From assembly GCA_029265455.1 (NCBI GenBank), contig JAJUJF010000001.1, positions 32,040 through 96,039 on the forward strand: a stretch of DNA of 64,000 nucleotides, given 5' to 3'. The position numbers were made by a program, and so were the translations under genes. The notes beneath the pieces were generated by a model, which had not been told where the DNA came from, made no database searches, and saw only the letters and a program-made list of their open reading frames with translations. Below are positions 3,166 to 32,695 of this stretch, one piece after another. Origin of the DNA: Paracoccaceae bacterium (GTDB taxonomy: Bacteria; Pseudomonadota; Alphaproteobacteria; Rhodobacterales; Rhodobacteraceae). How positions within the stretch are numbered: the first letter of the stretch is position 1; each line of letters opens with the position of its first letter.

Positions 3166-3237
3166 CGTTAACCCTTGGGTAGCTTCCTGTTTCTTTTTGA
3201 AATCAAGCACTTGATTGGGTTTTCACGCGTGGGCGCC
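3166..3237. repeat. 72-bp dispersed element, copy 1, with IHF-consensus core
   Basis: Ungapped 52/72 identity to 32624..32695, including exact 21-bp GGGTTTTCACGCGTGGGCGCC and 11-bp AAATCAAGCAC. Confidence 0.85.
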
Positions 3238-3249
3238 TGCTGCCCACGC

Positions 3250-4269
3250 TCAGGCGGCGGCCGGATAGAAGGCCTCGTAGAGCGGCTCGAGGGTGCGGCT
3301 GTCGAAGAGCGAGCTCACGCTCGTTCCGTTCGAGATGTTGAGGATCGCCTGGGCGAACAGCGGCGCGAGCGGCACGATCCGGATGTTCTTCGCCTTCCTC
3401 ACCGCCTCGGTCGGCTCGATCGAATCGGTGATGACGAGGCTCTTCATGATTGATTTCTCGATCCGCTCGACCGCGGGCCCGGAGAGGACGCCATGGGTGA
3501 TATAGGCATGCACCTCCTTCGCGCCCTGGTTCTTCAGAAGCTCCGCCGCCTTCACGAGCGTCCCGGCCGTGTCGCAGATGTCGTCGACGATGATGCAGAC
3601 CCGGTCCTTCACGTCGCCGATCACCGTCATCGACGCCACCTCGCCCGGGGCGGCGCGACGCTTGTCGACGATGGCGAGATCGGCGTCGATCCGCTCCGCC
3701 AGTTCCCGCGCCCGCGCGACCCCGCCCACGTCGGGCGAGACCACCGTCACCGCCGACCGGTCGCGGAAGACATGCATGATGTCGAGGGCAAAGACCGGCG
3801 CCGCATAGAGGTTGTCGACCGGGATGTCGAAGAACCCCTGGATCTGCGCGGCATGAAGATCGAGGGTCAGCACCCGCTCGATCCCCGCCTCGACGATCAG
3901 GTTGGCGACGAGCTTCGCGGAGATCGGGGTGCGCGCCTTCGCCCGCCGGTCCTGGCGCGCATAGCCGAAATACGGCATGACCGCCGTAATCCGCCCCGCC
4001 GACGAACGTCGGAGCGCGTCCGTGACGATCAGCAGCTCCATCAGGTTGTCGTTTGCGGGATTGGAGGTCGACTGGACGATGAACATGTCCTCGCCGCGGA
4101 CATTCTCGTAGACCTCGACGAAGATTTCCTGGTCGTTGAACCGCTCGACCCGCGTGTTGACGAGGCCGACTGATTCGCCGCGATGGATGGAGATGCGGCG
4201 CGCGATCGCTGCGGCGAGCGTCTTGTTGGAGTTGCCCGCAATCAGCTTCGGCCGGAGAAGGGGATTCAT
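3250..4269 (-). CDS. prs: Ribose-phosphate pyrophosphokinase
   Basis: [32 protein letters not shown]; start ATG 4269 after RBS GAGG. Confidence 0.97.
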
Positions 4270-4443
4270 GATGCCTCGGGAGCAGAAGTGGCCAGTCACG
4301 CGGTTCCCCTACCACCGCCGCCCGGACTTGCAAAGATCCGCAATCGGTCCATGCTCGCCACGGTGAACTTGCCGGGGAGGGGCCATGCCAGCCACCGATC
4401 CTTGCCACGCCTCGCTCACGCCCCGCCACCCTGCCGGGAAGCG

Positions 4444-4743
4444 ATGACCCCGTGGCGCGAAACCGGGGACGGGGTCGAACTCACCGTCCGCCTCACGCCC
4501 CGCGGCGGCCGTTCGGCGATCGACGGCGTCGGCGAGGCCGGGGGCCGCGCGGTGCTGCGGGTCCGGGTCGCCGCGCCTCCCGTCGATGGCGCAGCCAACG
4601 AGGCGCTGATAAGGACGCTCGCGGATGCGCTCGACCTGCCCCGCTCCGCGATCCGCATCGTCGCCGGCACCAGGGGGCGCATCAAGACCCTCCATCTCGA
4701 GGGCGACGACCTGCCCGCACGTCTTGCAGCCCTCACCGGCTGA
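4444..4743 (+). CDS. DUF167/YggU family protein
   Basis: VRLTPRGGR...VRVAAPPVDGAANEALI...GTRGRIKTL. Confidence 0.88.
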   Translation: MTPWRETGDGVELTVRLTPRGGRSAIDGVGEAGGRAVLRVRVAAPPVDGAANEALIRTLADALDLPRSAIRIVAGTRGRIKTLHLEGDDLPARLAALTG

Positions 4744-4750
4744 TCGCGCC

Positions 4751-5215
4751 CTACAGTTCCTCGTCGATAAGGTGATCCTCGAGCTCCTCCTCGGCGACCT
4801 CGTATTCGGGCACCATCGCGCCGCGCAGGGAGATGCCGGCGCGATGCACGCTCTCCGGATCGCCGGTGAGAAGCGGATGCCAATCCGGCAGCGGCATGCC
4901 CTTCGCCCGCAGGCGGTAGGCACAGGTCGAAGGCAGCCAGTGGAGCGATTCCCGCACCTTCTTCGGCGTCAGCATGACGCAGGCCGGCACCAGGGCCTTG
5001 CGATTCGCATAATTGCCGCAGCGGCAGGTTTCGGTGTCGAGCAACCGGCAGGCGACCGAGGTAAGATGCACCTCGCCGGTATCCTCATCCTCGAGCTTGA
5101 TGAGGCAGCACTTGCCGCATCCGTCGCAGAGCGCCTCCCATTCGGCCGGTCGCAACCGGTCGAGGGGCAGTTTCCAGAATTCCGGCCGCAATCCGCCGCG
5201 GGAAGCCATCCTCAT
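4751..5215 (-). CDS. YcgN family cysteine-cluster protein (UPF0260)
   Basis: [14 protein letters not shown]...WLPSTCAYR. Confidence 0.92.
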
Positions 5216-5291
5216 CCTTTCCGCTGCGGTCGAACCGCCGCATGCCACGCATTTAAGCGCCGCGCCTTCACTGACAAGACGACCGGCCCGC

Positions 5292-6236
5292 TCAGAGCCC
5301 CGCCAGCTCCAGCCGCTCGCGCGCCTCTGCCACATCGCGGTGCATCTGCGCGACCAGGGCATCCACGGATTCGAACTTCAGCTCCGGCCGCAGATAGGCA
5401 ACAAGCGCCACCGACACGGCCGTCCCGTAGAGGTCCCCCGAGAAATCGAGCAGATGCACCTCGAGATTGGGCGCATGGACCCCGAAGGTCGGCCGCTCCC
5501 CGATCGAGGCGGCGCCGCGCCAGCGTCCCCGCCACTGCCCTTCGAGCACGTCCACGCTGACCGCGTAGATACCGAGCCGCGGCAGATGGAGCCCCTCGAG
5601 CGACAGGTTGGCCGTCGGGAAACCCATGTCGCGGCCGCGCTTGTCGCCATGCTCGACCCGTCCCTCGATCCGGTGCCAATGCCCGAGCATCCGCGCCGCC
5701 CGTTCCGGCCGGCCTTCGCTGAGTGCCGCGCGGATCGCCGAGGAAGACACGTCTGTTCCCGCTTCGGAAACGAGGGGCGCCAGCGTCACTCCGAACCCGT
5801 AATGCGCCCCGAGCGCGCGAAGCAGGATGCCATCTCCCTGCCGGCCCTTGCCGAAGCGGAAATCCTCCCCGGCGACGACGTGCCGGACCGCGAGACCCTC
5901 CACCAGTACTTCTTCGACAAAGGTCTCCGCCGTCATCGAGGCAAGATCCGCGTTGAACGGGATCTCGTAGAGATGCTCGACCCCGAGCTTGTCCAGCCGG
6001 TGTGCCCGCGCTTCGGCATTCATCAGCCGGAACGGCGGACCGTCCGGATTGAAGAAGCTGCGCGGATGCGGCTCGAAGGTGACCACCCCCAGGGGAGCGT
6101 CCCGCTCCGCGGCCGCTGCCCGCGCTATCGCGATGACCGACTGATGGCCCAGATGCACACCGTCGAAATTGCCGATTGCCACTGCGGCGCCCCGTTCGGC
6201 CGCTGCAAGGCCACGATAGCCATGATGGCGGTGCAT
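5292..6236 (-). CDS. ribF: Bifunctional riboflavin kinase/FAD synthetase
   Basis: [38 protein letters not shown]. Confidence 0.97.
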
Positions 6237-6348
6237 GATTTCCCTCCGGCGCCCGCAGCCGCTACGGAACGCCGCGCCGGCATTCCACGCTCCGGCACCT
6301 ATGGCGCAGGTGCCGGGCACGTGCAAGCAGTGGGGCCACCGGCCGGGA

Positions 6349-6816
6349 TCAAGCCGCCGGGATCAGGTCGGCACGGCGGGGCGCGAGCACGATCGCCTCG
6401 CCGCGGAGCACGTCGGAACCACCGACGGAGCAGGCGCAGTCGAGGGTGACCCGCCGCTTCTCCATGTCGATCGCGATGACGGTGACGCGCGCCTCGACGA
6501 GGTCCCCCGGCCGGACCGGTCCGAAGAACTTCAGATCCTGCTTCAGGTAGATCGCGCCATGCCCGGGCAGCTGCTCGCCGATGACGGCGGAGATCAGCGA
6601 GCCGGTCAGCAAGCCGTGGGCTATCCGCCCGCCGAATATTGTCTTCCGCGCATACTCCTCATCGAGATGCACCGGATTATGGTCACTCGAAATCTCGGCA
6701 AAGAGCGCGATCATCCGCTCGGATACCACCTTCTGCAGCGACCGCGTCATCCCGACCTCGAGGTCCTCGAGCGGGATCGAGCCCGCTGTCTGCGATGATT
6801 CGCGCACGTCGAACAT
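6349..6816 (-). CDS. MaoC family dehydratase (R-specific enoyl-CoA hydratase, PhaJ-like)
   Basis: SSDHNPVHLD...RIAHGLL hydratase-2 motif. Confidence 0.9.
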   Translation of the reverse strand: MFDVRESSQTAGSIPLEDLEVGMTRSLQKVVSERMIALFAEISSDHNPVHLDEEYARKTIFGGRIAHGLLTGSLISAVIGEQLPGHGAIYLKQDLKFFGPVRPGDLVEARVTVIAIDMEKRRVTLDCACSVGGSDVLRGEAIVLAPRRADLIPAA

Positions 6817-7086
6817 GGCATCCTCCGGCATGTCTTCTGGAGGAGAGATAGCGTGCCCCGAAGAACCGCGCAACAATCTTGCGCAATTTTATGTCTACGA
6901 CCTCCGTCGTAGGCATCAGAATATTACGTCATGGTTTACGGAGCCGGGGTGACGCGATCCTGCCGTTCCGCAACGGCTGCCTGCCAAGCCCGCCTGCCGT
7001 GCACCGCAAGAATGCGCTTCAGGCGTGTCGGAACTCATGAAAAGTCCGCCCGAATTCCGCCTTCCCGGCGCGGCAGCCACCGCGAT

Positions 7087-7962
7087 TCAGCGCAGGTAGG
7101 GAATCACTGCGCTCGGCGTGAGCCGCGCCTTCTTCAGGAAGGTGTCGAGGAGATTCGCATCCGGCCCGGCGTCGCCGCTCGTTCCCGTCTCCGCTGCCGC
7201 CAGGCCGCCAGTCACGAAAACGGAATCCAGGTCCTCGCCAATCGCGCCGGCGATATCGGTGTGGATCCCGTCGCCGACCACCAGGATCGCGCGCGGACCT
7301 CCATCGTATCCCGCCGCCTCGAGCCAGCGCCGCGCCAGCGCATAGATCGGCGCATGCGGCTTGCCGAAATAGAAGCTCTCGCCGCCGGCTTCCGTATAGG
7401 CCTGGGCAATGGCGCCGGCGCAGTAGATGCGCTTGTCGCCGACGTCCACCACGATGTCGGGGTTGGCGCAGAGCAGCTTCAGTCCCTTGTTGACGCCGTA
7501 GAGGATGGTCGCGCGGTAGTCCTCGGGCGTCTCGGTGCGGTCATCGAAGAGCCCGGTGCAGACGATCGCCTCCGCCTCCTCGAGCGCCACCCGCTCGACC
7601 GGCACCGGGCTGCCGTCCTCCCGCTCGAAGAAGACGAGATCGCGCTCGGGACCCAGATGATAGACCTTGCTCCCGAACATGCCGCGCACCAGCGCGTCCT
7701 GCGCCGCGTCTCCCGACGAGATCACCGTGTCATAGACCTCCCGCGGCACGCCGAGCCCGTCGAGCTGACGGACGACGCTTGCCCGTGGCCGGGGGGAGTT
7801 CGTCAACAGGATGACCGCGCCCCCCCTGGCCTTGAACCGCGCCAGTGCGTCCACCGCCTCCGGAAAAGCCCGCACCCCGTCGTGTAGACAACCCCAGAGG
7901 TCGCAGTAGAGCGCCTCGTACTCGCCCGCGATCTCGTCCAACCGCTCGATGATCCGCACCAT
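7087..7962 (-). CDS. HAD-superfamily subfamily IIA hydrolase (TIGR01459 type)
   Basis: CDLWGCLHDG, LLTNSPR, CANPD, FGKP, VGDGIHTDI. Confidence 0.92.
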   Translation of the reverse strand: MVRIIERLDEIAGEYEALYCDLWGCLHDGVRAFPEAVDALARFKARGGAVILLTNSPRPRASVVRQLDGLGVPREVYDTVISSGDAAQDALVRGMFGSKVYHLGPERDLVFFEREDGSPVPVERVALEEAEAIVCTGLFDDRTETPEDYRATILYGVNKGLKLLCANPDIVVDVGDKRIYCAGAIAQAYTEAGGESFYFGKPHAPIYALARRWLEAAGYDGGPRAILVVGDGIHTDIAGAIGEDLDSVFVTGGLAAAETGTSGDAGPDANLLDTFLKKARLTPSAVIPYLR

Positions 7963-8146
7963 GAACCTCCGCCGCAAAGGCTCTTGCCATAGCCGTTCAC
8001 CCGCGGAGTGGGAAGGCCGGCTCCCGGCTGCCGGGCCTGTCGCCATCTGCGGACCGTTCCTGCGGGCAGCCTCCGCTTCGGCTGGCGCCCCGAGCCGCCT
8101 CTCCGGGTTGACATCGCCGGGCCTTCCCCCTTAATTCCGCTGTGAG

Positions 8147-8173
8147 TTAGCACTCACCCTTGGTAAGTGCTAA
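8147..8173 (+). promoter_or_regulatory. CIRCE element (HrcA operator)
   Basis: TTAGCACTC-N9-AAGTGCTAA, one mismatch to consensus, upstream of groES; TTGAC...CCCCTTAA promoter-like sequence at about 8108-8134. Confidence 0.93.
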
Positions 8174-8241
8174 CAAGGGGGGAGGGGCGCCGCTCGGGCC
8201 TGCCCCTTTTGTACAGGAAAGCAAGTGAGGAGCTGTTCCCC

Positions 8242-8556
8242 ATGAACTTCAAACCGCTGCACGACCGTGTCCTCGTTCGCCGCATCGAGACCGACGAGAA
8301 GACCAAGGGTGGCCTGATCATCCCGGATACCGCCAAGGAGAAGCCCTCCGAGGGCGAGGTCATCGCCGTGGGCGAAGGGGCGCGCAAGGATTCGGGCGAG
8401 CTGATTGCTCCCGCTGTCAAGGCCGGCGACCGCATCCTGTTCGGCAAGTGGTCGGGCACGGAGGTCAAGATCGACGGCGAAGATTACCTGATCATGAAGG
8501 AAAGCGACATCCTCGGAATCATCGAGGGCGGCAGCTCGGCACGCGCCGCGGCCTGA
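8242..8556 (+). CDS. groES: Co-chaperonin GroES
   Basis: [12 protein letters not shown]...[13 protein letters not shown]. Confidence 0.98.
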
Positions 8557-8595
8557 GTTCCCCGTTCCGGACGTCGCAACCCGAAAGAAGAATAG

Positions 8596-10251
<1,656 letters not shown>

Positions 10252-10307
10252 TCGGACCCGAGGTCCGGCCATCATCAGGGAGGCGGTCTCCGCCTCCCGA
10301 CAGTTCG

Positions 10308-10336
10308 CGGCCTGCGGAAGCTCCGCAGGCCGTTTT
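10308..10336 (+). terminator. Intrinsic terminator after groEL
   Basis: 11-bp stem CGGCCTGCGGA/TCCGCAGGCCG followed by TTTT. Confidence 0.75.
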
Positions 10337-10438
10337 GCCTGTTGCGTCGGGAATCCTTCCCGCCCGGGTCGTTCCGGCCCGCACAGGACAGGTTCCCAGC
10401 GTGAAGATCAGACCGTCAGACGCCTCGCACCTGCCCGT

Positions 10439-10576
10439 TCAGCCGAGGCGACGGGCGTCAGGACGATGATCCTCGATCCGGACCCGTCTCGGCGCGGGAC
10501 GGGCTGCGGCCCGAGCGGACAGAAGGCTGGCGCCAAGGACGGCCAGCACGACAAGAAGAAGCGTCAGCAGGTTCAT
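10439..10576 (-). CDS. 45-aa small membrane or secreted protein, not in ORF track
   Basis: MNLLTLLLVVLAVLGASLLSARAAARPAPRRVRIEDHRPDARRLG*; RBS GGGGAG; exact GGAAC-N17-CGTT promoter upstream. Confidence 0.7.
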   Translation of the reverse strand: MNLLTLLLVVLAVLGASLLSARAAARPAPRRVRIEDHRPDARRLG

Positions 10577-10632
10577 GATCGGCACTCCCCCGTCTTCGGC
10601 GCCATCATCCGGCGCAAGGGCTATGCATGGTG

Positions 10633-10658
10633 AACGCGCCTCGAGAGGAGTTCGTTCC
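10633..10658 (-). promoter_or_regulatory. EcfG/sigmaT/RpoE2-type general stress promoter
   Basis: Minus strand GGAAC-gaactcctctcgaggcg-CGTT (N17), oriented toward the 45-aa ORF. Confidence 0.7.
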
Positions 10659-10681
10659 GCGTGGCGATCATCAGGCGGGTT

Positions 10682-11749
10682 TCAACCGCCGGCCAGGGGC
10701 ATGATCCGTGTCACATGACCCATCTTGCGCCCCGGTCGTGCCTGCGCCTTGCCATAGAGATGCAGGGCTGCACCCTCGATCGCCGCGGCCTCGAACACCT
10801 CGTCGCCGATCAGGTTGGTCATCACCGCATCCGAATGCCGTCGACCGTCACCCAGCCTCCAGCCGCAGACCGCCCGCACATGCTGCTCGAACTGGTCGAT
10901 CAGGCAGCCGTCAATGGTCCAGTGGCCGGAATTGTGCACTCGCGGCGCGATCTCGTTGACCACGAGGCCCTGGTCGGTCACGAACATCTCGACTCCGATC
11001 ACGCCGACGTAATCGAGCGCGCCGAGGATGCGTCCTGCAATCAGCACCGCATCCTGCGCAAGCCGCGCAGGGATCCGCGCCGGCACGGTCGTCGTATGCA
11101 GGATACCGTCGCGGTGGACGTTCTCGCCCGGGTCGAAGGCGGCGACCTCGCCGTCGAGGCCGCGCGCGGCGATCACCGAGATCTCACGTTCGAAATCGAC
11201 GAAACCTTCCGCAATTGCCGGCGCGCCTTCAAGCGCAGCGAGCGCCGGCGCTGCCTCGGCCATGGAGGTGAACCGCGCCTGGCCCTTGCCGTCATAGCCG
11301 AAGCGCCGGGTCTTCAGGATCCCGCGCTCTCCCGTCACCACAAGGGCCGGGGCGAGGTCCTCATCCCCGTCCACCCGCGCATAGGGGGCGGTGGCAAGGC
11401 CGAGACCGCCGAGGAATTCCTTCTCCGCCAGCCGATCCTGCGCCACCTCCAGGGCCCTGCGGCCCGGCCGCACGGGCGCCGCCGCCGCGACCACGTCGAC
11501 GGCTTCGACCGGGACATTCTCCCATTCGTAGGTGACGACGTCGCAGGCGGCCGCGAACCGCGCCAGGGCTTCCCGGTCGTCGAACCGCGCCCGCGTCCAG
11601 TCGCGCGCCACCTCGGCGGCGCAAGCGTCGCCGGGCTCGTAGACATGGACATGAAGGCCCAGGCGGGCCGCCGCCATTGCCAGCATCCTGCCGAGCTGTC
11701 CGCCACCGAGTATGCCGAGGGTCGATCCGGGTGCGAGCATCTCAGTCAT
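10682..11749 (-). CDS. purK: 5-(carboxyamino)imidazole ribonucleotide synthase
   Basis: [36 protein letters not shown]; start overlaps purE stop. Confidence 0.96.
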
Positions 11750-12230
11750 CCTCAGGCACCTCCGCCACCGCTTCGGTCTGCGCTGCGCGCCACGCATCCA
11801 GGCGTGACGCGAGCGCGGGATCATCGACCGCAAGCATCGCCGCCGCGAAAAGCGCGGCATTGGCCGCACCGGCCGCACCGATGGCAAAGGTCGCGACCGG
11901 CACCCCCTTCGGCATCTGGACGATCGAGAGAAGGCTGTCGAGACCGGAAAGCGCCCGGCTCTCGACCGGCACCCCGAGCACCGGCACCCGGGTCTTTGCC
12001 GCGAGCATTCCCGGCAGATGCGCGGCGCCGCCCGCACCGGCGATGATCGCGGCAAGGCCACGCCCGGCCGCCGCCTCGGCATAGGCAAACATCCGGTCCG
12101 GGGTACGGTGCGCGGAGACGATCCGCACTTCATGCGCCACCCCGAGGGCATCGAGGATCGTGGCGGCCGACTTCATCGTCGCCCAGTCGGACTGGCTCCC
12201 CATCACGATGCCGACCCGCGGCTCAGCCAT
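11742..12230 (-). CDS. purE: N5-CAIR mutase
   Basis: [39 protein letters not shown]. Confidence 0.97.
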
Positions 12231-12311
12231 GCCGATCCCCGGCGTGACCATGCCCCGATGCCGTGCAGGGTGGACTCCCGCGATGCATGTCGCCTGCCCG
12301 GCCGCTCCCGC

Positions 12312-12530
12312 TCACGCGATGATGTCCGGTGTCAGCTCGTCCTCGAGCCGGACGATCTCGTCCTTGAGGACGAGCTTGCGCTTCTTCAGCCGCCGTATCG
12401 TCAGCGCGTCGCCCCGGCCCTCGCGGTCCAGTGCCGCGATCGCCGCATCGAGATCGCGATGCTCGCGCCGGAGCAGGTCAAGCTTCACCCGCAGCACCTC
12501 CTCATGGCTCATTGTCGGCGGTTCGGTCAT
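12312..12530 (-). CDS. DUF465/YdcH family coiled-coil protein
   Basis: LRREHRDLDAAI...IRRLKKRKLVLKDEI; usual neighbour of purE. Confidence 0.85.
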   Translation of the reverse strand: MTEPPTMSHEEVLRVKLDLLRREHRDLDAAIAALDREGRGDALTIRRLKKRKLVLKDEIVRLEDELTPDIIA

Positions 12531-22949: not shown

Positions 22950-23774
22950 ATGACCGATCACTTCCATGACATCGCCAGCCGCGGTCTCGTCCTGCTCGGA
23001 TGCGGCAGGATGGGATCGGCACTTCTCGAGGGCTGGCTTTCCCGCGGCCTTCCGGCATCGGCCGTCACCGTCCTCGACCCCGTCCCGGGAACGCGACTCG
23101 AAACCCTCGCGCGCGACGGGCTCCGCCTCAATGACGCCCTCCCCGACGCCCCCGCCGCCTGCCTCCTCGCAGTCAAGCCGCAGACGATGGAGGCGGCGCT
23201 TCCTGCGGTCGCCCCACTTGCCGGCGGCGCCACGCTCTTTCTCTCCATCGCCGCCGGCACGACGCTGGCACGGCTCGAATCGGTGCTCGGTGCCGGGACA
23301 CCGATCGTGCGCGCGATGCCCAACACGCCGGCGGCGATCGGCCGCGGCATCACCGCGCTCGTCGGCAACGAGGCTGCGGAGGAGGATCACCTCGCCATGG
23401 CCGAGGCGCTCCTCGCCGCGGTGGGCGAGACCGTCCGCCTCGACTCGGAGGCAGAGATGGACGCCGTCACTGCCGTCTCCGGCTCGGGTCCCGCCTATGT
23501 CTTCCTCCTGATCGAGACCCTCGCCCGCGCAGGCGAGGCCGAGGGTCTCGCGCCCGAACTCGCGTTGCGCCTTGCGCGCGCAACCGTCGCCGGCGCAGGC
23601 GCGCTTGCGGCCGAAAGCGGTACCGATCCTGCCATCCTGCGCGAGAACGTCACCAGTCCCGGCGGCACCACCGCCGCCGCCCTCGAAGTCCTCATGGAAC
23701 CCCGGGGTTTTCCCGCTCTCCTGTGCGAGGCGGTTGCCGCCGCGTCCCGCCGCTCACGGGAGCTTGCCCGATGA
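22950..23774 (+). CDS. proC: Pyrroline-5-carboxylate reductase
   Basis: GCGRMG, AVKPQ, RAMPNTP, SGSGPAY, VTSPGGTT. Confidence 0.96.
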   Translation: MTDHFHDIASRGLVLLGCGRMGSALLEGWLSRGLPASAVTVLDPVPGTRLETLARDGLRLNDALPDAPAACLLAVKPQTMEAALPAVAPLAGGATLFLSIAAGTTLARLESVLGAGTPIVRAMPNTPAAIGRGITALVGNEAAEEDHLAMAEALLAAVGETVRLDSEAEMDAVTAVSGSGPAYVFLLIETLARAGEAEGLAPELALRLARATVAGAGALAAESGTDPAILRENVTSPGGTTAAALEVLMEPRGFPALLCEAVAAASRRSRELAR

Positions 23775-23799
23775 CGTCTTCCCTGTGCGGAGATTTTTT

Positions 23800-23850
23800 T
23801 GCTGCACTGCAACAAAACTGCTTGACGGTTATGCTGCACCGCACCATATT
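23800..23850 (+). promoter_or_regulatory. Sigma70-type promoter with two PhaR-like TGC boxes
   Basis: TTGACG(23822)-N17-CATATT; boxes TGCTGCACTGC (23800) and ATGCTGCACCGC (23831). Confidence 0.65.
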
Positions 23851-23906
23851 CGCCTCGTGCGCGGATGATCCCGCCACTCGAAGCCAGCGCAAAAGGGAGA
23901 TTCCCG

Positions 23907-24374
23907 ATGTTTGACCCCAAGACCTTCCAGTTCGATGTCGAGAAGATGACCGACTTCTTCCGGCAGAACGACTTCACCAAGCAGTTCGCCGCCTTCAAGG
24001 TGCCCGGCGTGGACACCGAGGCCCTCGTCGAGACCCAGAAGAAGAACATGGAAGCCCTCGTGAAGGCCAATCAGGCTGCCGCGGCCGGCTACCAGGATCT
24101 CTTCAAGAAGCAGATCGCGATCTTCGAGGAGACGATCGCCGAGGCGCAGAAGCACTTCCAGAATCTCGATGCGACCAAGCTCGATGCCGAGTCCGCCAAG
24201 GCTCAGGCCGAACTCGCCCGCACCGCCTTCGAGAAGGCGCTGAGCAACATGCAGATGCTCGCCGAGACCGCGCAGAAGGCCAATGCCGAGGCCTACGAGA
24301 TCGTCTCCGCCCGCATCCAGGAGAGCCTCGCCGAACTCCGCGAGATGGCGCAGAAGCTCACCTCGCGCGCCTGA
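23907..24374 (+). CDS. phaP: Phasin (TIGR01841-like)
   Basis: Ala/Gln/Glu-rich amphipathic helices, KKNMEALVKANQAAAAGYQ; PhaR-like boxes upstream. Confidence 0.85.
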   Translation: MFDPKTFQFDVEKMTDFFRQNDFTKQFAAFKVPGVDTEALVETQKKNMEALVKANQAAAAGYQDLFKKQIAIFEETIAEAQKHFQNLDATKLDAESAKAQAELARTAFEKALSNMQMLAETAQKANAEAYEIVSARIQESLAELREMAQKLTSRA

Positions 24375-24443
24375 TCGACCGAGGGGACGACCTTCCTCAT
24401 CCGGGGCCTGCCGCGACCCGTGGCAGGCCTTTTTCCTGTCTGC

Positions 24444-24941
24444 TCAGCCGAGCAGTACCTCAAGATACCGCTCGTGGACGAGGCAGAGCGGCAGGCCGTG
24501 CCGATCGCTCAGCATCGCCTCATGCTCAAGCACCGTCGCACCCTCTCCGGTGAACCGCACCCCGAGATTGCGCCGCCTTGGCCGGAGCGGCGCCACCACC
24601 TCGCCGAAAGGCACATCGCTCGTCGCCAGGGCGCGGTTGATCCCGTCCGGAAGCCGGCCGGGCACGAACCAGTTCTCGGCCCAGGCAAGCGGGACATCAC
24701 CGCGCAGGAGCTGCACCGACCGGTAGTCGAGACGTTCGCCCGGCTCGAGGGCCAGCAGCGCAATCAGGTCCGGCCCCGGCCCGGGAGGCCGCTCCACCTG
24801 CCGCTGCACCACCCGGATCGGCCCGGACGCGATCCCGCGGAACTCGCACCAGTCGAGGAGCGCCGCCGTCGCCGTCGGCCCCGCGAGGATGCGGTCGCTG
24901 AGCGCGCGCACGCAAGCCCTCACCCGGCTTCCCGCTGTCAC
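24444..24941 (-). CDS. Hypothetical protein, chorismate-lyase/UTRA-like fold
   Basis: GTG start 7 nt after AGGAGG; YRSVQL.RG...LAWAENWFVP.RL, SDVPFG, LVHERY recall UbiC/UTRA patterns. Confidence 0.65.
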   Translation of the reverse strand: MTAGSRVRACVRALSDRILAGPTATAALLDWCEFRGIASGPIRVVQRQVERPPGPGPDLIALLALEPGERLDYRSVQLLRGDVPLAWAENWFVPGRLPDGINRALATSDVPFGEVVAPLRPRRRNLGVRFTGEGATVLEHEAMLSDRHGLPLCLVHERYLEVLLG

Positions 24942-25103
24942 GGCGCATCCTCCTTCGCCCTGTCATTGCCGGCCCCGCGACGGCGCAGCCTGCCCCCGCA
25001 CCTACGGCCGTTGGGGAACACGGGCAAGCGCACCTCCGACCAATAGCCCGTTGCTCCCGCCGCCGGATGCGGGTTTCCTCGCCATTACGAACGGGAGAGG
25101 GAC

Positions 25104-25442
25104 ATGGAAGAGATCAGCTTCGACGACTTCCTCAGGGTCGACATCCGCGTTGGCCGCATTGTCGAGGCCGAGGACTTCCCCGAGGCGCGCAAACCCGCGC
25201 TGAAGCTCCGCATCGACTTCGGCCCGGAACTCGGCACCCGCCGCTCCTCGGCCCAGCTCACCCGCCACTACACTCCCGAATCGCTCATCGGCCGCCGCGT
25301 GCTCGCGGTCGTCAACTTCCCGCCCCGCCAGATCGGCCCCGTCCGCTCCGAGGTCCTCGTCCTCGGCGTCCCGGATGCCGAGGGCGAGGTCGTTCTCGTC
25401 ACCCCCGATCAGGACGTGCCGCTCGGCGGCCGTCTCTTCTGA
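25104..25442 (+). CDS. csaA: tRNA-binding protein / chaperone CsaA
   Basis: DIRVGRI...FPEARKPA...SSAQLT...VVNFPPRQIGP..SEVL. Confidence 0.93.
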   Translation: MEEISFDDFLRVDIRVGRIVEAEDFPEARKPALKLRIDFGPELGTRRSSAQLTRHYTPESLIGRRVLAVVNFPPRQIGPVRSEVLVLGVPDAEGEVVLVTPDQDVPLGGRLF

Positions 25443-25460
25443 CCCCGAGAGGCCCGCGTC

Positions 25461-26423
<963 letters not shown>

Positions 26424-26498
26424 GCGGGATACTCCCAACCACCCGAACCGGGCGCGAGGCGCATCACCGGCCGTCCGGAGACGCGCGACCGGCGCCGT

Positions 26499-27008
26499 TC
26501 ACACCGTCGCGGCGGGCTCGGGTTCCGATGCGATGTCGACGCCGGCGCTCGCGGCGATGGCGAGAATCGTCGCAATTGACGGCTCGCCCCCGCGCCCGGC
26601 GGCGTCCATCTGCCTGAACATCGCCTCGATCCCGGCGCCGGGCAGGCAGAACACCAGCAGTCGCGCCTCCTCCGCGCCCTCGTTGCGAAATGCATGCCGC
26701 AGGCCGCGCGGCCCGAAGAAGAACCCACCCGGGCCGAGGCATTGCGGCCCTTCAAGCCCGGCGCAGTCGATGACGATCTTCCCCGCCAGCACATGGAATG
26801 CCTCGTCCTCATGCGTGTGGGTGTGGGGCGGCACGCCGCGACCCGGCGGCACGCTCACCTCGATACAGCAGAAACTTCCGGCGGTCTCGGCGCTCGTGGC
26901 CTTGAACACATAGCGCGCGCCCAGGATTTCGAGCCGCGAACCCTCGTCCGCATGGCGGAGCACGGCCGCCGCCGCGGGCGCCTCTCCCGGATTCCGCATC
27001 ACGTCCAT
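26499..27008 (-). CDS. Cupin domain protein (quercetinase-like)
   Basis: PPHTHTHEDEAFHVLAG and GPRGLRHAFRN cupin motifs; start 27008 or 26999. Confidence 0.85.
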   Translation of the reverse strand: MDVMRNPGEAPAAAAVLRHADEGSRLEILGARYVFKATSAETAGSFCCIEVSVPPGRGVPPHTHTHEDEAFHVLAGKIVIDCAGLEGPQCLGPGGFFFGPRGLRHAFRNEGAEEARLLVFCLPGAGIEAMFRQMDAAGRGGEPSIATILAIAASAGVDIASEPEPAATV

Positions 27009-27093
27009 CGTCGCATCCTCCCGACCCGGCTGAACGGGGAAATCCTAGATCCGGCAGGCGCCATCGATTAGTCTGCCCGGGCGCGACGCCGCT

Positions 27094-27107
27094 TCCTGAA
27101 ATCAGGA
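27094..27107. promoter_or_regulatory. Inverted repeat between divergent cupin and LysR genes (probable LTTR site)
   Basis: TCCTGA-AA-TCAGGA. Confidence 0.5.
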
Positions 27108-27116
27108 CAATCACCG

Positions 27117-28052
27117 TTGGACCGGCTGGACGGGATCACCGCTTTCGCGCAGGTCGTGGAGGCCGGCAGCTTCACCGCTGCTGCGCAGCGCATGAAACTC
27201 TCGAAATCGGCGGTCAGCGCCCATGTGCAGCGACTCGAGGACCGGCTCGGGGTGCAGCTCCTGCACAGGACGACCCGGCGCCTCGCCACCACGGAAGCGG
27301 GTACCGCCTATTACCGGCACTGCGTACGTATCCTCGCCGAGGCCGCCGCCGCCGAACAGGCCGCGATGGCGCTCCATCTCGAACCCCGCGGCACGCTGAG
27401 GATCAGCGCCCCCGACAGCTTCGGGTGGATGCACGTGGCCCCTGCAATCGCCACGTTCCGCGCCCGCTTTCCCGATGTCACCATCGATCTCCGGCTCGAG
27501 GAGCGGCATGTCGACCTAGTCAGGGAGGAGGTCGACCTTGCCATCCGCATCGGGGCGATGCCCGACTCCGCGCTGATCGTGCGGACCCTTGCGCGATCGC
27601 GCATGGTGATCTGCGCAGCCCCGGCCTATCTCGCCCGCCACGGCACGCCCTCGACGCCCGAAGCGCTCGAAACACACGGCTGCCTCTGCTTCCCGCCGCT
27701 GTGGCGGAGCGGCCGATGGCATCTCGACGGTCCCGACGGGGAGCGGCGCGTGCCGGTCTCGGCCAACGTCGCCAGCAACAGTGCCGAAGTGCTACGCGCC
27801 ACCGCGCTTGATGGCGTCGGGATCGCCCTGCTGCCCTGCTGGCTGATCGCCGGCGACCTGCGAAGCGGCGCGCTTGTGCCCATCCTCCCCAGATGGACGC
27901 CGGGTGCTCCCGACATCCACGCCGTCTATCCCGACGACCGCCGCAGATCGGCGAAGGTGCGCGAATTCGTCGATCACCTCGCGCGGCGGATCGGACGCAT
28001 CCCGTACTGGGAGCGGGAAATGACCGCCGGGCCACCCCCGGCACCCGGCTGA
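27117..28052 (+). CDS. LysR family regulator (DmlR/CrgA-like)
   Basis: GSFTAAA...SKSAVS...LEDRLGVQLLHRTTR; TTG start. Confidence 0.93.
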   Translation: MDRLDGITAFAQVVEAGSFTAAAQRMKLSKSAVSAHVQRLEDRLGVQLLHRTTRRLATTEAGTAYYRHCVRILAEAAAAEQAAMALHLEPRGTLRISAPDSFGWMHVAPAIATFRARFPDVTIDLRLEERHVDLVREEVDLAIRIGAMPDSALIVRTLARSRMVICAAPAYLARHGTPSTPEALETHGCLCFPPLWRSGRWHLDGPDGERRVPVSANVASNSAEVLRATALDGVGIALLPCWLIAGDLRSGALVPILPRWTPGAPDIHAVYPDDRRRSAKVREFVDHLARRIGRIPYWEREMTAGPPPAPG

Positions 28053-28299
28053 CACACGAACCGGACTCCGCGATCCGGTTGGCCCGTATGCCGGGAGCGG
28101 GTGCCCAGGTCCCATGCAGGCGGGAGCGACACCGGCCATCGCTCCCTGCGCAAACCGTCCCCTTGCACGCGGTTCCGGATCAACGACTTGTGGGGATTTC
28201 AAGCCTGGCGCTTCCTCCGCGCGGCGGATCCTCGGTCGCTCGACACCCTTTCCCCGATCGCCTAGGACGGGATGGAGCAGCAGCCTTCGGAGAGAACCG

Positions 28300-30120
28300 A
28301 TGCACCCAGAACCCCGCTTCGACGCCCGCGATGCCGCCCGCGACGGAGAGGAGCTCGGACCGCTCCCCGAATGGGATCTCTCCGCCCTCTACGCGGGCCC
28401 CGACGACCCGGCGCTTGCCCGCGACATGGATCAGGTGGCGGCAGAAGCCGCCGCATTCGCCGAACGCTACGAGGGCAAGCTCGCCGATCTCGATGCCGCC
28501 GGCTTCCTTGAATGCATCCGAGCCTACGAGGCAATCCAGAACCGCTCCGGCCGGGTCATGTCCTATGTCGGGCTGCGGCATTACCAGAACACCCTCGATC
28601 CCGCCCGCGCCAAGGCCTACGGCGACGCCGATACCCGCATCACCGAAGCGACGACGCCGCTCGTCTTCTTCACGCTCGAGCTCAACCGCCTCGAGGACGC
28701 CCATCTCGAAGGGCTGCTTGCCGCCGATCCCGAACTCGCCCGCTACCGCCCGGTCCTTGCCCGCATCCGGGCAATGAAACCCTACCAGCTCTCCGACGAG
28801 CTCGAGCGTTTCCTCCACGATCAGTCCGTCGTCGGCGCCGCCGCCTGGAACCGCCTCTTCGACGAGACGATGGCCGGGCTCACCTTCACGGTCGATGGCG
28901 AGAGCCTGAATCTCGAATCGACGCTCAACCTCCTCACCGACCACGATCGCAGCCGCCGCGAAGCCGGCGCCCGGGCACTGGCCGCCGTCTTCACCGAGCG
29001 CCTGCCCCTCTTCGCGCGCATCACCAACACGCTCGTCAAGGAAAAGGAGATCGTCGACCGCTGGCGGAAGCTCCCCACGCCGCAGATGGCGCGGCATCTT
29101 TCCAATGATGTCGAGCCCGAGGTGGTCGAGGCGCTCCGCAACGCCGTGGTCGCCGCCTATCCCCGGCTCTCCCACCGCTACTACGCGCTCAAGGCCCGCT
29201 GGCTCGGCCTCGACAAGCTCGAGATCTGGGACCGCAACGCGCCACTGCCGCAGGAGACCGACCGTCGCATCCCTTGGGAGGAGGCCCGCGAAACCGTCCT
29301 CGAGGCCTATGCCGGATTCGATCCCCGCATGGCCGAGATCGCCCGCCCCTTCTTCGACAAGGGCTGGATCGACGCGCCGGTGAAACCCGGCAAGGCCCCG
29401 GGTGCCTTCGCTCATCCGACCGTCACCGACGCCCATCCCTTCGTGCTGCTCAACTATCTCGGCAAGACCCGGGACGTGATGACGCTCGCCCATGAACTCG
29501 GCCACGGCGTGCACCAGGTCCTCGCCGCGCCGCAAGGCGAGCTTCTCTCCTCCACCCCGCTGACGCTGGCCGAGACGGCTTCCGTCTTCGGCGAGATGCT
29601 CACCTTCCGCCGCCTTCTCGATCAGGCGCCGACGCCCGAGCAGCGGCGCATCCTCCTCGCCTCCAAGGTCGAGGACATGATCAACACCGTCGTCCGCCAG
29701 ATCGCCTTCTACGATTTCGAATGCCGCCTCCATGAGGCCCGGCGTGCAGGCGAACTGACGCCCGACGACATCAACGCGATCTGGATGTCGGTCCAGGCCG
29801 AATCCCTCGGGCCGGTCTTCAACTTCATGCCGGGATACGAGACCTTCTGGACCTACATCCCGCATTTCATCCACTCGCCCTTCTACGTCTATGCCTATGC
29901 CTTCGGCGACGGGCTCGTGAACGCGCTCTACGCGGTCTATGAGGAGGGCGACCCCGATTTCGCCGACAAGTATTTCGCCATGCTGCGTGCGGGCGGCTCT
30001 CTCCACCACAAGGAGTTGCTCGCGCCCTTCGGCCTCGACGCGAGCGATCCCGCCTTCTGGGACAAGGGCCTTGCCCTCATCTCCCGCTTCATCGACGAAC
30101 TCGAGGCGGCCGGAACCTGA
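28300..30120 (+). CDS. pepF: M3 family oligoendopeptidase (PepF/M3B)
   Basis: LAHELGHGVH, LAETASVFGE, HFIHSPFYVYAY. Confidence 0.94.
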   Translation: MHPEPRFDARDAARDGEELGPLPEWDLSALYAGPDDPALARDMDQVAAEAAAFAERYEGKLADLDAAGFLECIRAYEAIQNRSGRVMSYVGLRHYQNTLDPARAKAYGDADTRITEATTPLVFFTLELNRLEDAHLEGLLAADPELARYRPVLARIRAMKPYQLSDELERFLHDQSVVGAAAWNRLFDETMAGLTFTVDGESLNLESTLNLLTDHDRSRREAGARALAAVFTERLPLFARITNTLVKEKEIVDRWRKLPTPQMARHLSNDVEPEVVEALRNAVVAAYPRLSHRYYALKARWLGLDKLEIWDRNAPLPQETDRRIPWEEARETVLEAYAGFDPRMAEIARPFFDKGWIDAPVKPGKAPGAFAHPTVTDAHPFVLLNYLGKTRDVMTLAHELGHGVHQVLAAPQGELLSSTPLTLAETASVFGEMLTFRRLLDQAPTPEQRRILLASKVEDMINTVVRQIAFYDFECRLHEARRAGELTPDDINAIWMSVQAESLGPVFNFMPGYETFWTYIPHFIHSPFYVYAYAFGDGLVNALYAVYEEGDPDFADKYFAMLRAGGSLHHKELLAPFGLDASDPAFWDKGLALISRFIDELEAAGT

Positions 30121-30169
30121 TCACGGGACCGGACCCGGCGCGACGTGGCGCCCGGAACGTCGCCCGGAC

Positions 30170-30877
30170 TCAGCCGCGCCCCGCGAGCAGCGACTCGACG
30201 AATGCCGGCACCACCTCACCTGCCGGTCCGTAACGCCGCTCGTCGAAGGCCCAGGCATTGTCGGAAGGCTCGAGATTGAGCTCGGCCGTCCGCACTCCCG
30301 CCTCCCGGGCGATGTCCACGAATCCCGCCGCCGGATAGACCGAGCCCGAGGTACCGATCGACACGAAGAGATCGCTCGTCTCGATCGCCATCGCTGCCTC
30401 GTCGAGACCGACCGGCATCTCGCCGAACCAGACCACGTCCGGGCGCATCCCGCCCCGCCGCCCGCATCCCGGGCAGGCGGTCGCCACGTCGAGTTCCCCC
30501 CGCCACTCCACGACCGCCCCGCAACCGGTGCAGCGCGCCTTCAGGAGTTCGCCATGCATGTGATGCACCACGCGCGAGCCCGCCCGCTCGTGCAGGTCGT
30601 CGATATTCTGCGTGCAGAGGTAGAGGCTCCCGCCCGAAGCCGTGAGGGCCGCCTCGAGCCGCGCAAGCGCGCGATGTCCCTCATTCGGCTCGGCGGCAAG
30701 GAGATCCCGCCGCCGCAGGTTGTAGAAGGCATGCACCTGCTCCGGATCGGAGGCGAAGGCCTCGGGTGTCGCGAGTTTCATCGGGTCGAACCGCTCCCAG
30801 ATGCCGCCCGGATCGCGGAACGTCCCGAGCCCGCTCTCCGCCGAGATCCCCGCTCCCGTCAGCACGAATACCCTCAC
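30170..30877 (-). CDS. cobB: NAD-dependent protein deacylase (Sir2/CobB)
   Basis: GAGISAESG, TQNID, two CxxC, RPDVVWFGE, GTSGSVYPAA; GTG start after AGGAGG. Confidence 0.92.
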   Translation of the reverse strand: MRVFVLTGAGISAESGLGTFRDPGGIWERFDPMKLATPEAFASDPEQVHAFYNLRRRDLLAAEPNEGHRALARLEAALTASGGSLYLCTQNIDDLHERAGSRVVHHMHGELLKARCTGCGAVVEWRGELDVATACPGCGRRGGMRPDVVWFGEMPVGLDEAAMAIETSDLFVSIGTSGSVYPAAGFVDIAREAGVRTAELNLEPSDNAWAFDERRYGPAGEVVPAFVESLLAGRG

Positions 30878-31003
30878 GCCGGCCTCCTGCTCTTGCCGCG
30901 AGCCTTGACGCTCGTGCGGCGAGGCGTCAACCATGGCGGCACCGAACCGGGCGGGCATCCCGTCCCGCCGCTTCATCGCCTCCTGACCCGAGGACCTCCG
31001 CAT

Positions 31004-32389
31004 ATGGCTCGGCTCGTCATCGCCTCCAACCGCACCGCCGCCCCCGGCGAGTCCACGGCCGGCGGCCTTGCTGTCGCACTCCGGGAAGCCCTCACCGAAC
31101 GCGGCGGCGGCCTCTGGTTCGGCTGGTCGGGCGAAACCCACGACAGCGAGAGCCGCGGCGTCCGCCTCATCTCCGAGGGCAACATCGACTACGCCCTCGC
31201 GGATCTGAGCGAACGGGAATACGAGGGTTATTACCTCGGCTACGCCAACCGCTCGCTGTGGCCGGTCTGCCATTACCGCATAGATCTCGCGCGTTTCGAC
31301 GACGAGGCCTTCGAGACCTATGCCCAGGTCAACCGCCGCTTCGGCGGCCTCATCCACGGCCTGCTCAGGCCAGGCGACCGGGTCTGGGTGCATGACTACC
31401 ACTTCTTCCTCCTCGGCCAGGAACTGCGAAATGCCGGCTGGCGCGGGCGGATCGGCTTCTTCCACCATATCCCCTTTCCGGCGCCCGAGGTCTTCACCGC
31501 CCTGCCCCAGCACCATCGCCTCGCGCGCGGCCTTGCGGATTTCGACCTCCTCGGCTTCCAGACCCAGCGCGACACCCGCAACTTCACCCGCTACATGGTC
31601 GAGCACCACGGCGCGCATCACCTCGGCGACGGGCGGCTCGCCGTCTTCGACCGCACGATCGAGGCCCGGGCCTTCCCGATCGGCATCGATCCCGCCGAGA
31701 TCGTCGCCTTCGCCACTTCCGAGAGCGGCCGCAATGACGCCGACCGCCTTTCCCGGATGCTTGCGGATCGCGCTCTCGTCCTCGGCGTCGACCGCATGGA
31801 CTATTCAAAGGGCCTTCTGCAGCGCATCCAGGCCTTCGGCAGCCTCCTCGACGAACACCAGGATCTGCGCGGCCATGTCACCTTCGTCCAGATCGCGCCG
31901 CCCTCGCGCGAGGGGCTGTATGCCTACCAGGAACTGCGCGAGGAACTCGACCGGCTCTCGGGCCGGATCAACTCCAACTATTCCGATCTCGACTGGACCC
32001 CGATCCGCTATCTTGCCCGGGGCTATCCGCGCGAAACCCTCGCCGGGCTCTATCGCAAGGCGCGGGTCGGACTGGTCACGCCGCTCTACGACGGCATGAA
32101 TCTCGTCGCCAAGGAATATGTGGCGGCACAGGATCCGGAGGATCCGGGCGTGCTCGTGCTTTCGGAATTCGCCGGCGCCGCCGAACAGCTTTCCGCCGCC
32201 CTCATCGTCAACCCCTACGACATCCCGACGATGGCCGAGGCGATCCACCGCGGCCTCACGATGCCGCTCGAGGAACGGCGCGAACGATGGCAGGAGCTCA
32301 ACAGGGCCGTCACCGAAAATGACATCGCCCGCTGGCGGCGCGACTTCCTCGCCGCCCTCGACGCCCATCCCGGTTCCGAGGACGACTGA
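31004..32389 (+). CDS. otsA: Alpha,alpha-trehalose-phosphate synthase
   Basis: SNR, WVHDYH, FFHHIPFP, GVDRMDYSKG, DGMNLVAKEY. Confidence 0.96.
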   Translation: MARLVIASNRTAAPGESTAGGLAVALREALTERGGGLWFGWSGETHDSESRGVRLISEGNIDYALADLSEREYEGYYLGYANRSLWPVCHYRIDLARFDDEAFETYAQVNRRFGGLIHGLLRPGDRVWVHDYHFFLLGQELRNAGWRGRIGFFHHIPFPAPEVFTALPQHHRLARGLADFDLLGFQTQRDTRNFTRYMVEHHGAHHLGDGRLAVFDRTIEARAFPIGIDPAEIVAFATSESGRNDADRLSRMLADRALVLGVDRMDYSKGLLQRIQAFGSLLDEHQDLRGHVTFVQIAPPSREGLYAYQELREELDRLSGRINSNYSDLDWTPIRYLARGYPRETLAGLYRKARVGLVTPLYDGMNLVAKEYVAAQDPEDPGVLVLSEFAGAAEQLSAALIVNPYDIPTMAEAIHRGLTMPLEERRERWQELNRAVTENDIARWRRDFLAALDAHPGSEDD

Positions 32390-32530
32390 CCGTCGCGGAC
32401 ATCCGGCGACGACTGCATACCGGCCGCCGGCGACCTGCGCAGGGGAAGCTCCACGTCCGCCCCTCGATACACATCGGCGCCATCCGGAGGGACAAGAGCG
32501 CCGCACCGGTCGACGGCACCCGCTCCAGCC

Positions 32531-32590
32531 GCTCGCTTCCGGCCGGACGGCCGGGAGCGAGCCAGAGACCACGGCCCCGCAACGGGGCCT
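32531..32590. terminator. Tandem GC hairpins between convergent otsA and hspQ
   Basis: 14-bp stem 32531-32562 (one G-U) and 7-bp stem GGCCCCG/CGGGGCC 32574-32590. Confidence 0.5.
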
Positions 32591-32623
32591 CTGCATGGCA
32601 GCGGCCGGCTCGCGGGCCCATGG

Positions 32624-32695
32624 CGTTAACCTTGGGGCAATCTTTGATTATGCTTGAAAATCAAGCACCTGGACGGGTTTTCACGCGTGGGCGCC
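32624..32695. repeat. 72-bp dispersed element, copy 2
   Basis: Ungapped 52/72 identity to 3166..3237; ends 2 nt from the hspQ stop codon. Confidence 0.85.

Follow-up and report, generated by a model that had tools for sequence, protein, structure and literature searches.

The 64,000-nucleotide stretch of Paracoccaceae bacterium DNA studied here (the window, C199:32040-96039 of a 2.83-Mb metagenome-assembled genome (MAG) with 67.8% GC, 209 contigs and 98.9% completeness) contains two copies of a short intergenic element, each lying directly beyond the stop codon of a minus-strand gene, prs in one case and an hspQ-like gene in the other. These two copies belong to a family of 85-90 in this genome, and the main property of the family, which the original prediction on this DNA had missed, is that its copies are polarized with GC skew. 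The element strand, which reads from a GTTAAC motif to a terminal hairpin, was found on the C-rich strand in 62/75 copies when flanks of 5 kb were considered, and in 45/48 of those where |skew| was greater than 0.04. Across three genomes from two genera, the family was oriented with local strand asymmetry in 33/33, 54/56 and 27/28 informative cases. It may represent a new kind of chromosome-organizing or strand-specifically spreading repeat in Rhodobacteraceae-like bacteria. No description of this element family was found in the literature searched.

Polarity with GC skew and the skew boundaries

Flank skew was compared between this genome, a near-complete congener (G044) and a complete 3.7-Mb chromosome of 59% GC from another genus (G072), the latter two carrying variants of their own. 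All values are given in element orientation:

This genome, beyond the GTTAAC end: skew of -0.05 to -0.075 for at least 10 kb; 54 negative vs 2 positive
This genome, hairpin side: approximately -0.07 in the first 1-2 kb, then approximately 0 at 3-12 kb (19 negative, 21 positive)
G044, beyond the GTTAAC end: -0.03 to -0.05 over 7 kb; 27 negative vs 1 positive
G044, hairpin side: -0.065 in the first 1-2 kb, then approximately 0 at 2.5-7.5 kb (13 negative, 12 positive)
G072, beyond the GTTAAC end: mean of -0.123 over 7 kb; 33 negative vs 0 positive
G072, hairpin side: -0.08 in the first 1-2 kb, then +0.017 at 2.5-7.5 kb (12 negative, 21 positive)

Element orientation followed the local skew by 31 to 5 in G044. 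In G072, approximately 78% of copies followed the two large skew domains of the chromosome, and 33/33 followed the local flank.

The skew itself behaves like a replication skew and not like an effect of transcription. Gene orientation was rejected as its cause, given that the mean coding-strand skew was approximately 0, that the sign of the skew persisted over 105 kb across changes of gene strand, and that the effect was equal for genes on either strand; it was also stronger at third codon positions. The G-rich strand carries rpsL, tuf, atpD and rpoB and was accordingly assigned as the leading strand; as the element strand is C-rich, the leading-type strand reads each copy from hairpin to GTTAAC. 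The family therefore has a strand polarity that follows replication direction, as do Chi, KOPS and Ter motifs, and its orientation bias is also of the IS200/IS605 type, in which the active strand is on the lagging-strand template. A preference of genes for the leading strand was absent, with 47% of coding bases on the locally G-rich strand.

Neighboring copies less than 14 kb apart were arranged as (+,-), with their hairpins facing, 11 times and as (-,+) 0 times. The facing pairs bracket switches from minus to plus skew, as they also do along 400 kb of G044, and the hairpin side of the element often lies at such a switch. Taking the C-rich strand as the leading one, which would make these pairs Ter-like, was ruled out by the presence of rpsL, tuf, atpD and rpoB on the other strand. 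Composite transposons were likewise rejected as the basis of the pairs, since the genes enclosed are housekeeping genes (surE-pcm-nlpD, ispB, pheS, recG, rlmN). Nor are the pairs located at dnaA, as the dnaA contig (C155:12812-13081, 25.8 kb) holds no element copy; this contig has almost no skew. The tightest facing pair, separated by 1.4 kb, was seen in G072 (G072:C1:1297749-1299217, L230) around a single CDP-alcohol phosphatidyltransferase (pgsA-like) gene, with a skew jump of approximately 0.26.

Within G044:C1:400000-800000 (L170-L189), GC skew was patchy, forming domains of 25-150 kb rather than two replichores, which suggests many past rearrangements of this congener or some other strand-asymmetric process. 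Two copies in G044 (G044:C1:508247 and 531505) have identical flanks in inverted orientation, indicating a larger inverted duplication approximately 23 kb apart, and they alone clearly break the skew rule in their region.

The elements sit at rearrangement junctions, i.e., at breaks of synteny. Seven element flanks were common to this genome and G044, and in 0 cases were both flanks of one copy kept. For instance, the gene that borders the prs copy of G044 at its GTTAAC end is found in this genome beside a different copy (C171). Inversion by recombination between elements, when worked through on paper as a cause of the skew switches, leaves either one copy that violates the upstream skew rule or no anomaly at all, and was rejected. 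The skew pattern would be accounted for by breakpoints lying a few kb from two co-oriented copies, on their hairpin side.

Architecture, position and distribution of the family

The original prediction started from the two window copies, and its description of their letters was reproduced throughout. Positions 3166-3237 and 32624-32695 align without gaps, with 52/72 columns invariant, and have in common the blocks CGTTAACC and AAATCAAGCAC and the exact 21-mer GGGTTTTCACGCGTGGGCGCC, which occurs twice in the window vs 0.01 times expected from shuffles; the similarity is thus far beyond chance. The stop codons (tca on the + strand, 3250-3252 and 32698-32700) are 12 and 2 nt beyond copies 1 and 2, and the open reading frame (ORF) at 3250-4299(-) was identified as prs by its three phosphoribosyl pyrophosphate synthetase Pfam domains. 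Copy 1 contains the palindrome AATCAAG-CA-CTTGATT (3201-3216), which fits the integration host factor (IHF) consensus WATCAANNNNTTR on both strands and has a T-tract ahead of it, and the IHF-like core of copy 2 has a single mismatch (CTG for TTR). Also in copy 1, GCGTGGGC (3227-3234) pairs with GCCCACGC (3242-3249), directly against the prs stop. The features of the window are as follows:

3156..3249, + strand: element copy 1 at full extent (model match plus 3' hairpin arm), between a MetF-like ORF (2094-3044, - strand) and the prs stop
3156-3254 (C199:35195-35293): nhmmer match for copy 1
3166..3173, + strand: 5' block CGTTAACC of copy 1, with the palindrome GTTAAC, in which TTAAC is a CtrA-type half-site
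3201..3216, + strand: IHF-consensus core and palindrome of copy 1, with the T-tract before it at 3193-3198
3217..3237, + strand: near-invariant block GGGTTTTCACGCGTGGGCGCC of copy 1, including the 8-bp palindrome CACGCGTG at 3224-3231
3227..3249, + strand: terminal hairpin of copy 1, GCGTGGGC - GCCTGCT - GCCCACGC, touching the prs stop (3250-3252)
3250..4299, - strand: prs (ribose-phosphate pyrophosphokinase), with a variant element at the same place in the congeners G008 and G044
32615..32698, + strand: element copy 2, without 3' hairpin arm (nhmmer match C199:64654-64737), between an otsA-like ORF (29939-32389, + strand) and the hspQ/YccV stop
32659..32671, + strand: IHF-like core of copy 2, AATCAAGCACCTG, with one mismatch
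32675..32695, + strand: invariant 21-mer of copy 2
32698..33108, - strand: hspQ/YccV-like gene, with its stop 2 nt from copy 2

Searches of the genome by nhmmer, which had been proposed as a check on copy number, yielded 85 copies with a 72-bp model and 90 with an extended model. The 72-bp unit originally described holds as the core of the element and not as its extent, which is approximately 95-100 nt, to the 3' hairpin arm; in approximately 40% of copies the unit reaches further, to an arm motif in the 5' flank. A JGI metagenome in which this species is present at 99.3% identity yielded three more copies, all on unbinned contigs. One pair of copies (C16, C87) is an assembly duplicate from overlapping contig ends, and the larger repeat that their common flanks might have indicated was accordingly rejected. 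Dozens of contig-end pairs in this MAG overlap by 440-730 bp at 96-99%, e.g., C16:15136-15578 with C87:10208-10650, as well as C39/C197 and C56/C144; the MAG is thus redundantly fragmented, probably through strain variation, with some features counted twice.

The layout comprises GTTAAC, a T-rich spacer, the IHF-consensus core (ATCAA-N4-TTGAT), the invariant GGTTTTCACGCGTGGGC and the hairpin arm GCCCACG, all at fixed length, with the consensus CGTTAACACTTGGGTARCTTCTGNTTTYNCTTTGAAATCAATGGCTTGATGGGGTTTTCACGCGTGGGCGCC-(N3-5)-GCCCACGS. The individual features occurred as follows:

TTAAC at the 5' end: 66/84 copies
Exact IHF consensus, + strand: 50/84 copies
CACGCGTG: 83/84 copies
3' hairpin: 74/84 copies
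CCCAYG or CGTGG arm motif in the 5' flank: approximately 37/84 copies
Arm motif within the element, often without a 3' arm: 9/84 copies

Nearly all copies align without any indel. Median pairwise identity was 60% (maximum 87%) over positions 1-52, and 95-100% over positions 53-72. Near-invariant blocks held at strict spacing, with saturated divergence elsewhere, fit the pattern of selected protein-binding sites and not that of a recent transposition burst: the blocks hardly vary while the free positions are only about 60% identical, and without indels, which argues against a young burst of MITEs (miniature transposable elements with inverted repeats). In keeping with this, no young copies were found among the family members in the genome. 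The motif GGGTAG is also conserved, yet it is 45 nt from the hairpin.

The family accounts for 61/69 exact IHF-consensus matches in the genome, 50 on the + strand and 11 on the - strand. With WATCAANNNNTTR and a 5' T-tract before the core, these are candidate IHF sites, and homologues of ihfA, ihfB and hu are present in the genome. The G072 variant begins with a CtrA-type box (5' YTAA-N7-TTAAC), followed by an IHF-consensus core and a terminal palindrome, GTAACACGCGTGTTAC, a perfect 16-bp palindrome in 31/33 copies. Its CtrA-type box is exact in 8 copies and has at most one mismatch in 23/33, and 8 of the 12 exact CtrA-box matches in 635 kb of G072 fall in the element. GTTAAC is nearly excluded from coding DNA in the present genome (8 sites/2.48 Mb); the 0.33 Mb of intergenic DNA has 44 sites apart from those in the family, and these extra sites may be further degenerate copies or CtrA-type sites. 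A sigma-54 promoter in the hairpin was rejected, as the spacing is N9 and not N10, as was a likeness of GTTTTCAC to parS, which occurs only in some variants and has CGCG at its center.

Position relative to genes was determined against 2585 genes (88% coding density) called with our own simple codon-bias caller:

Tandem genes, element sense: 29 copies
Tandem genes, element antisense: 16 copies
Between convergent genes: 27 copies
Between divergent genes: 9 copies
Within a called gene: 3/90 copies
At a contig edge: 6 copies

The background of 2376 intergenic regions comprised 1671 tandem, 353 convergent and 352 divergent ones. Convergent regions were thus enriched in elements (27/81 vs 353/2376) and divergent regions depleted (9/81 vs 352/2376), even though the latter are the longest. 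Where a gene converges on the hairpin end, the median distance to its stop was 11 nt, with 33/43 such cases at 20 nt or less, and gene starts were found on the GTTAAC side in 25/81 copies and on the hairpin side in 38/81. The family is therefore extragenic with a bias to 3' ends and convergent regions, as are REP (repetitive extragenic palindromic) sequences and BIMEs. The 3'-end bias is real and is without fixed orientation relative to transcription. With 85-90 copies so distributed, the proposal of a lineage-specific dispersed element with an IHF-consensus core and a bias to gene 3' ends was borne out.

This exact variant was found in 0/24 congeners and 0/16 more distant relatives, two of the congeners having weak partial matches to the common core. 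An exact-core scan of 185,579 species genomes and the JGI metagenomes recovered this species only, via one metagenome and one MAG contig; the contig, labelled uncultured Rubellimicrobium, has the exact variant at the locus of copy C138. Chance occurrences of the 17-mer GGTTTTCACGCGTGGGC were seen in protein-coding genes as well, where it encodes ...VFTRG..., in L040 (Pseudovibrio sp. Ad37), L063 and L089 (JGI metagenomes), so exact-core matches outside the species are not elements. Two congeners, G008 and G044, have 36-40 copies of their own variant, ATTAAYG-AAG-ATTAACG...TTTCAA-N4-TTAACCGGAATTGCACGCGTGTTAC-loop-GTAACAC, including one at the same place directly 3' of the prs stop, and most of the 24 congeners have 0; in the congeners that come closest in prs (84% identity), nothing lies after the prs stop. 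For the wider family, the pattern TCAA-N4-TT-N11/12-CACGCGTG was run on one genome per genus in 300 genera of the bacterial family. It was multi-copy in at least 10/300 genera, with counts of 41, 33, 23, 20, 12, 8 and 6 vs 74 in this genome, and a reversed-pattern control gave approximately 0. The sequence beside CACGCGTG is specific to each genome. Hence, the family is widespread but patchy in this bacterial family.

Alternative explanations and the reading favored

We consider an RNA the least probable explanation of the family, and scarcely a credible one, whether as the 3'-untranslated region (3'-UTR) small RNA family that had originally been put forward, an RNA-stability hairpin or a terminator. 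A hairpin end so close to converging stops and a GC-rich hairpin in 74/84 copies would suit such a transcript. However, no U-tract follows the hairpin on either strand, and Rfam gave 0 gathering-threshold matches in the 64-kb window. RNAalifold recovered just the two conserved palindromes, and for four candidate stems the true partners paired no better than permuted ones (z = -1.7 to 2.6), permutation tests also giving no support to two stems picked by eye (SL1, SL2). In addition, the opposite end of the element faces the upstream gene in the 29 sense tandem cases, 16 copies are antisense, and polarity with replication is unexpected for RNA. With no covariation, no Rfam match and both orientations relative to genes, the element is a DNA-level one. 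A stable-RNA promoter or non-coding RNA gene beside the copies was rejected on similar grounds, as the window has no Rfam match, tRNA or tmRNA. A cis-regulatory site of the regulon type, i.e., a promoter or operator module dependent on CtrA and IHF, which originated next to many genes or was recruited there, is also very improbable. It would account for the CtrA-type box in G072, the TTAAC half-site and the IHF consensus in this genome, the location of copy 1 approximately 110 nt upstream of a minus-strand ORF, and the loose resemblance of a minus-strand TTGATT-N17/18-GCTACC to alphaproteobacterial sigma-70 promoters. A promoter role, however, is at odds with the small share of copies (25/81) that have a gene start on the GTTAAC side, with the depletion of the promoter-rich divergent regions and with the 27 copies between convergent genes, and it leaves a skew polarity irrespective of gene strand unexplained. 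Both of these explanations fit poorly.

A stronger rival, which we regard as possible though doubtful, would have the family consist of non-autonomous mobile elements of the MITE, REPIN or PATE-like sort, mobilized in trans by an enzyme, HUH-type or other, that works strand-specifically on the single-stranded DNA of replication forks. In that case the way of insertion would set the polarity, the enzyme would recognize the invariant block and hairpin, and the genome-specific arms would co-evolve with it. Copy number does differ by species (approximately 90 here, 36-40 in G008/G044, 0 in most of the 24 congeners), occurrence is sporadic over genera, and just 4-7 of 38 G044 sites have a flank in common with a site in this genome. 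The hairpin at one end, the presence of arm motifs at either side in some copies, and an orientation bias like that of IS200/IS605, IS91 and IS110 (PMC3971601, PMC6006769) also agree with mobility, which explains the genome-specific arms better than the reading that we favor. Against it, PF01797, the Y1 transposase of IS200/RAYT, gave 0 matches in this genome, G008, G044, the complete G072 chromosome and five other carriers (G058, G149, G324, G172, G057), while the positive controls gave matches; G118 was the only one of ten element-bearing genomes to have it. The relationship to REP sequences and RAYTs suggested earlier was therefore not sustained: the family is not a REP-RAYT system, given the absence of this gene from 9/10 carriers, and it is not a free REP family, as the CGTGGGC-N-GCCCACG hairpin is never stand-alone (70/71 genomic occurrences lie within the composite element). 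The assembly contains no repeat the size of an insertion sequence (IS), only contig-end overlaps, and no near-identical copies. All sites are the same in the second sampled population (99.3% identity), with neither polymorphic nor empty sites between the two. A consistent terminal inverted repeat (TIR) or target duplication was also lacking among the copies. The 5' (CCCACG)CGTTAACAC does match, imperfectly, the 3' block in reverse complement, GCCCACGCGTGAAAAC, though only 25-37/84 copies have the outer 5' arm. At 78-84% nt identity in prs, the congeners are too far removed for element boundaries to be placed at the base level. What remains of the proposed MITE-like relic is thus slight, with no clear TIRs, target duplications, near-identical copies or parent IS, and with blocks that look selected. 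Indeed, conservation in indel-free blocks points to selection on every copy, the skew break on the hairpin side is not explained by an insertion mechanism alone, and a mobile element accounts less well than the favored reading for the deep divergence and skew boundary. A packaging site for gene transfer agents (GTAs) was set aside, since a study of the D. shibae GTA observed no motif at packaging peaks (PMC5786225).

The reading that we favor, while holding it tentatively and as somewhat less likely than not, is that of a fixed-length double-stranded DNA family that acts as polar nucleoprotein sites, seeded by strand-specific, replication-coupled spread and kept by selection. IHF would bend the AT-rich center and so bring the 5' GTTAAC/CtrA-type site next to the palindrome or hairpin, and a postulated sequence-specific partner protein would bind CACGCGTG or the hairpin. 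A strand-specific process coupled to replication may have seeded the copies, with purifying selection on the protein-site blocks maintaining them since. As the G-rich, leading-type strand always reads from hairpin to GTTAAC, forks would enter the element from the hairpin side, and elements might mark, or cause, preferred points of fork stalling and rearrangement just behind stop codons. Breakage or rearrangement at a point a few kb ahead of the hairpin would then give just the pattern seen, with facing pairs at minus-to-plus switches and plus-to-minus switches left unmarked. A more specific proposal, which we think unlikely, is that of replication-linked polar sites at which the IHF-bent complex and the CACGCGTG binder (with CtrA in some lineages) pause, trap or restart forks from the hairpin side and so set the starts of GC-skew domains and the rearrangement points, in a Ter-, Chi- or origin-like manner.

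Several observations weigh against polar nucleoprotein sites. The G044 variant keeps the exact IHF consensus in 1/38 copies only and, with the consensus almost gone from it, IHF may not be the common denominator of the variants. The CtrA box TTAA-N7-TTAAC is represented in this genome by its half-site TTAAC only (66/84), and the G044 variant has TTAA-N6-TTAA in 23/38 copies and the N7 spacing in none. No trans-acting gene was identified. Replacement of arms in a species-specific manner, at sites that are partly shared, is easier to understand if a mobile element that has an enzyme of its own has turned over than as co-evolution of approximately 90 host sites. Moreover, the skew boundary could reflect past inversions and not element activity. 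Finally, the fragmentation of the genome into 209 contigs and the simplicity of the gene caller are further caveats.

Comparison with known systems

Intergenic mosaics with an IHF site, i.e., BIME-1/RIB and Correia elements, provide the closest comparison (PMC2229807, PMC2649163, PMC10969869). Like E. coli BIME-1/RIB-RIP, in which a REP pair surrounds an IHF site, the family is an extragenic mosaic of approximately 100 bp at the ends of transcription units, with GC-rich palindromic arms, a central IHF-consensus site and many copies. It differs in having no RAYT/TnpA-REP gene, no stand-alone REP and no GTAG at the foot of the hairpin, and in adding the invariant CACGCGTG palindrome, the GTTAAC/CtrA-type module and strict skew polarity. 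To our knowledge, no skew polarity of this kind has been described for BIMEs.

With the Neisseria Correia elements (CREE) and other MITEs that carry an IHF site, the family has in common a small size, a dispersed intergenic distribution and an IHF site that looks functional, together with a place beside genes whose expression it could affect. Correia elements, however, have 26-bp TIRs, a TA duplication and strain-polymorphic copies (PMC2649163, PMC10969869, PMC2229807), whereas the present family has no clear TIR or target duplication, no polymorphism between two populations, and copies that are 60% identical outside the blocks. A subterminal hairpin, a strong replication orientation bias and genome-specific variants recall IS200/IS605-derived elements and REPINs (PMC6006769, PMC3116915, PMC3971601). 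Yet the Y1 transposase is absent from 9/10 carriers, and REPIN populations are near-identical quasi-species, unlike the deeply diverged copies seen here. Lacking a RAYT, free REP, clear TIR or target duplication, and near-identical copies, the family fails the defining tests of BIME/RIB, Correia and IS200/IS605 alike.

CIR and the rhizobial RIME are, like this family, alphaproteobacterial intergenic repeats of approximately 100 bp with a site for a cell-cycle regulator. CIR carries GANTC methylation sites, none of which are conserved here, and these repeats are not known to resemble the family in sequence. Listed in PMC10969869, CIR is the CcrM-associated intergenic repeat of Caulobacter.

The usual view of small intergenic repeats is that they are selfish relics. 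This family stands apart in that it keeps a fixed geometry of putative protein sites over deep divergence and is polarized in the absence of the HUH transposase to which such polarity is normally ascribed. Since it combines synteny breakpoints with most of the perfect IHF sites of the genome, it matters for annotation and for the study of genome rearrangement. As with Chi, KOPS and Ter, it is oriented along the leading strand and reverses where the skew switches, and its inward-facing pairs resemble opposed Ter sites, but they flank switches of the origin type and not of the terminus type. Chi, KOPS and Ter are 8- to 23-bp motifs with the partners RecBCD/AddAB, FtsK and Tus/RTP, in contrast to a 100-bp intergenic composite in 30-90 copies with no known partner. 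We know of no Tus/RTP or Chi equivalents in alphaproteobacteria. If the polarity stems from insertion, a new strand-specific mobilization enzyme awaits discovery; if it stems from selection, the family would be a candidate polar chromosome-organizing site for alphaproteobacteria, one that is directly testable.

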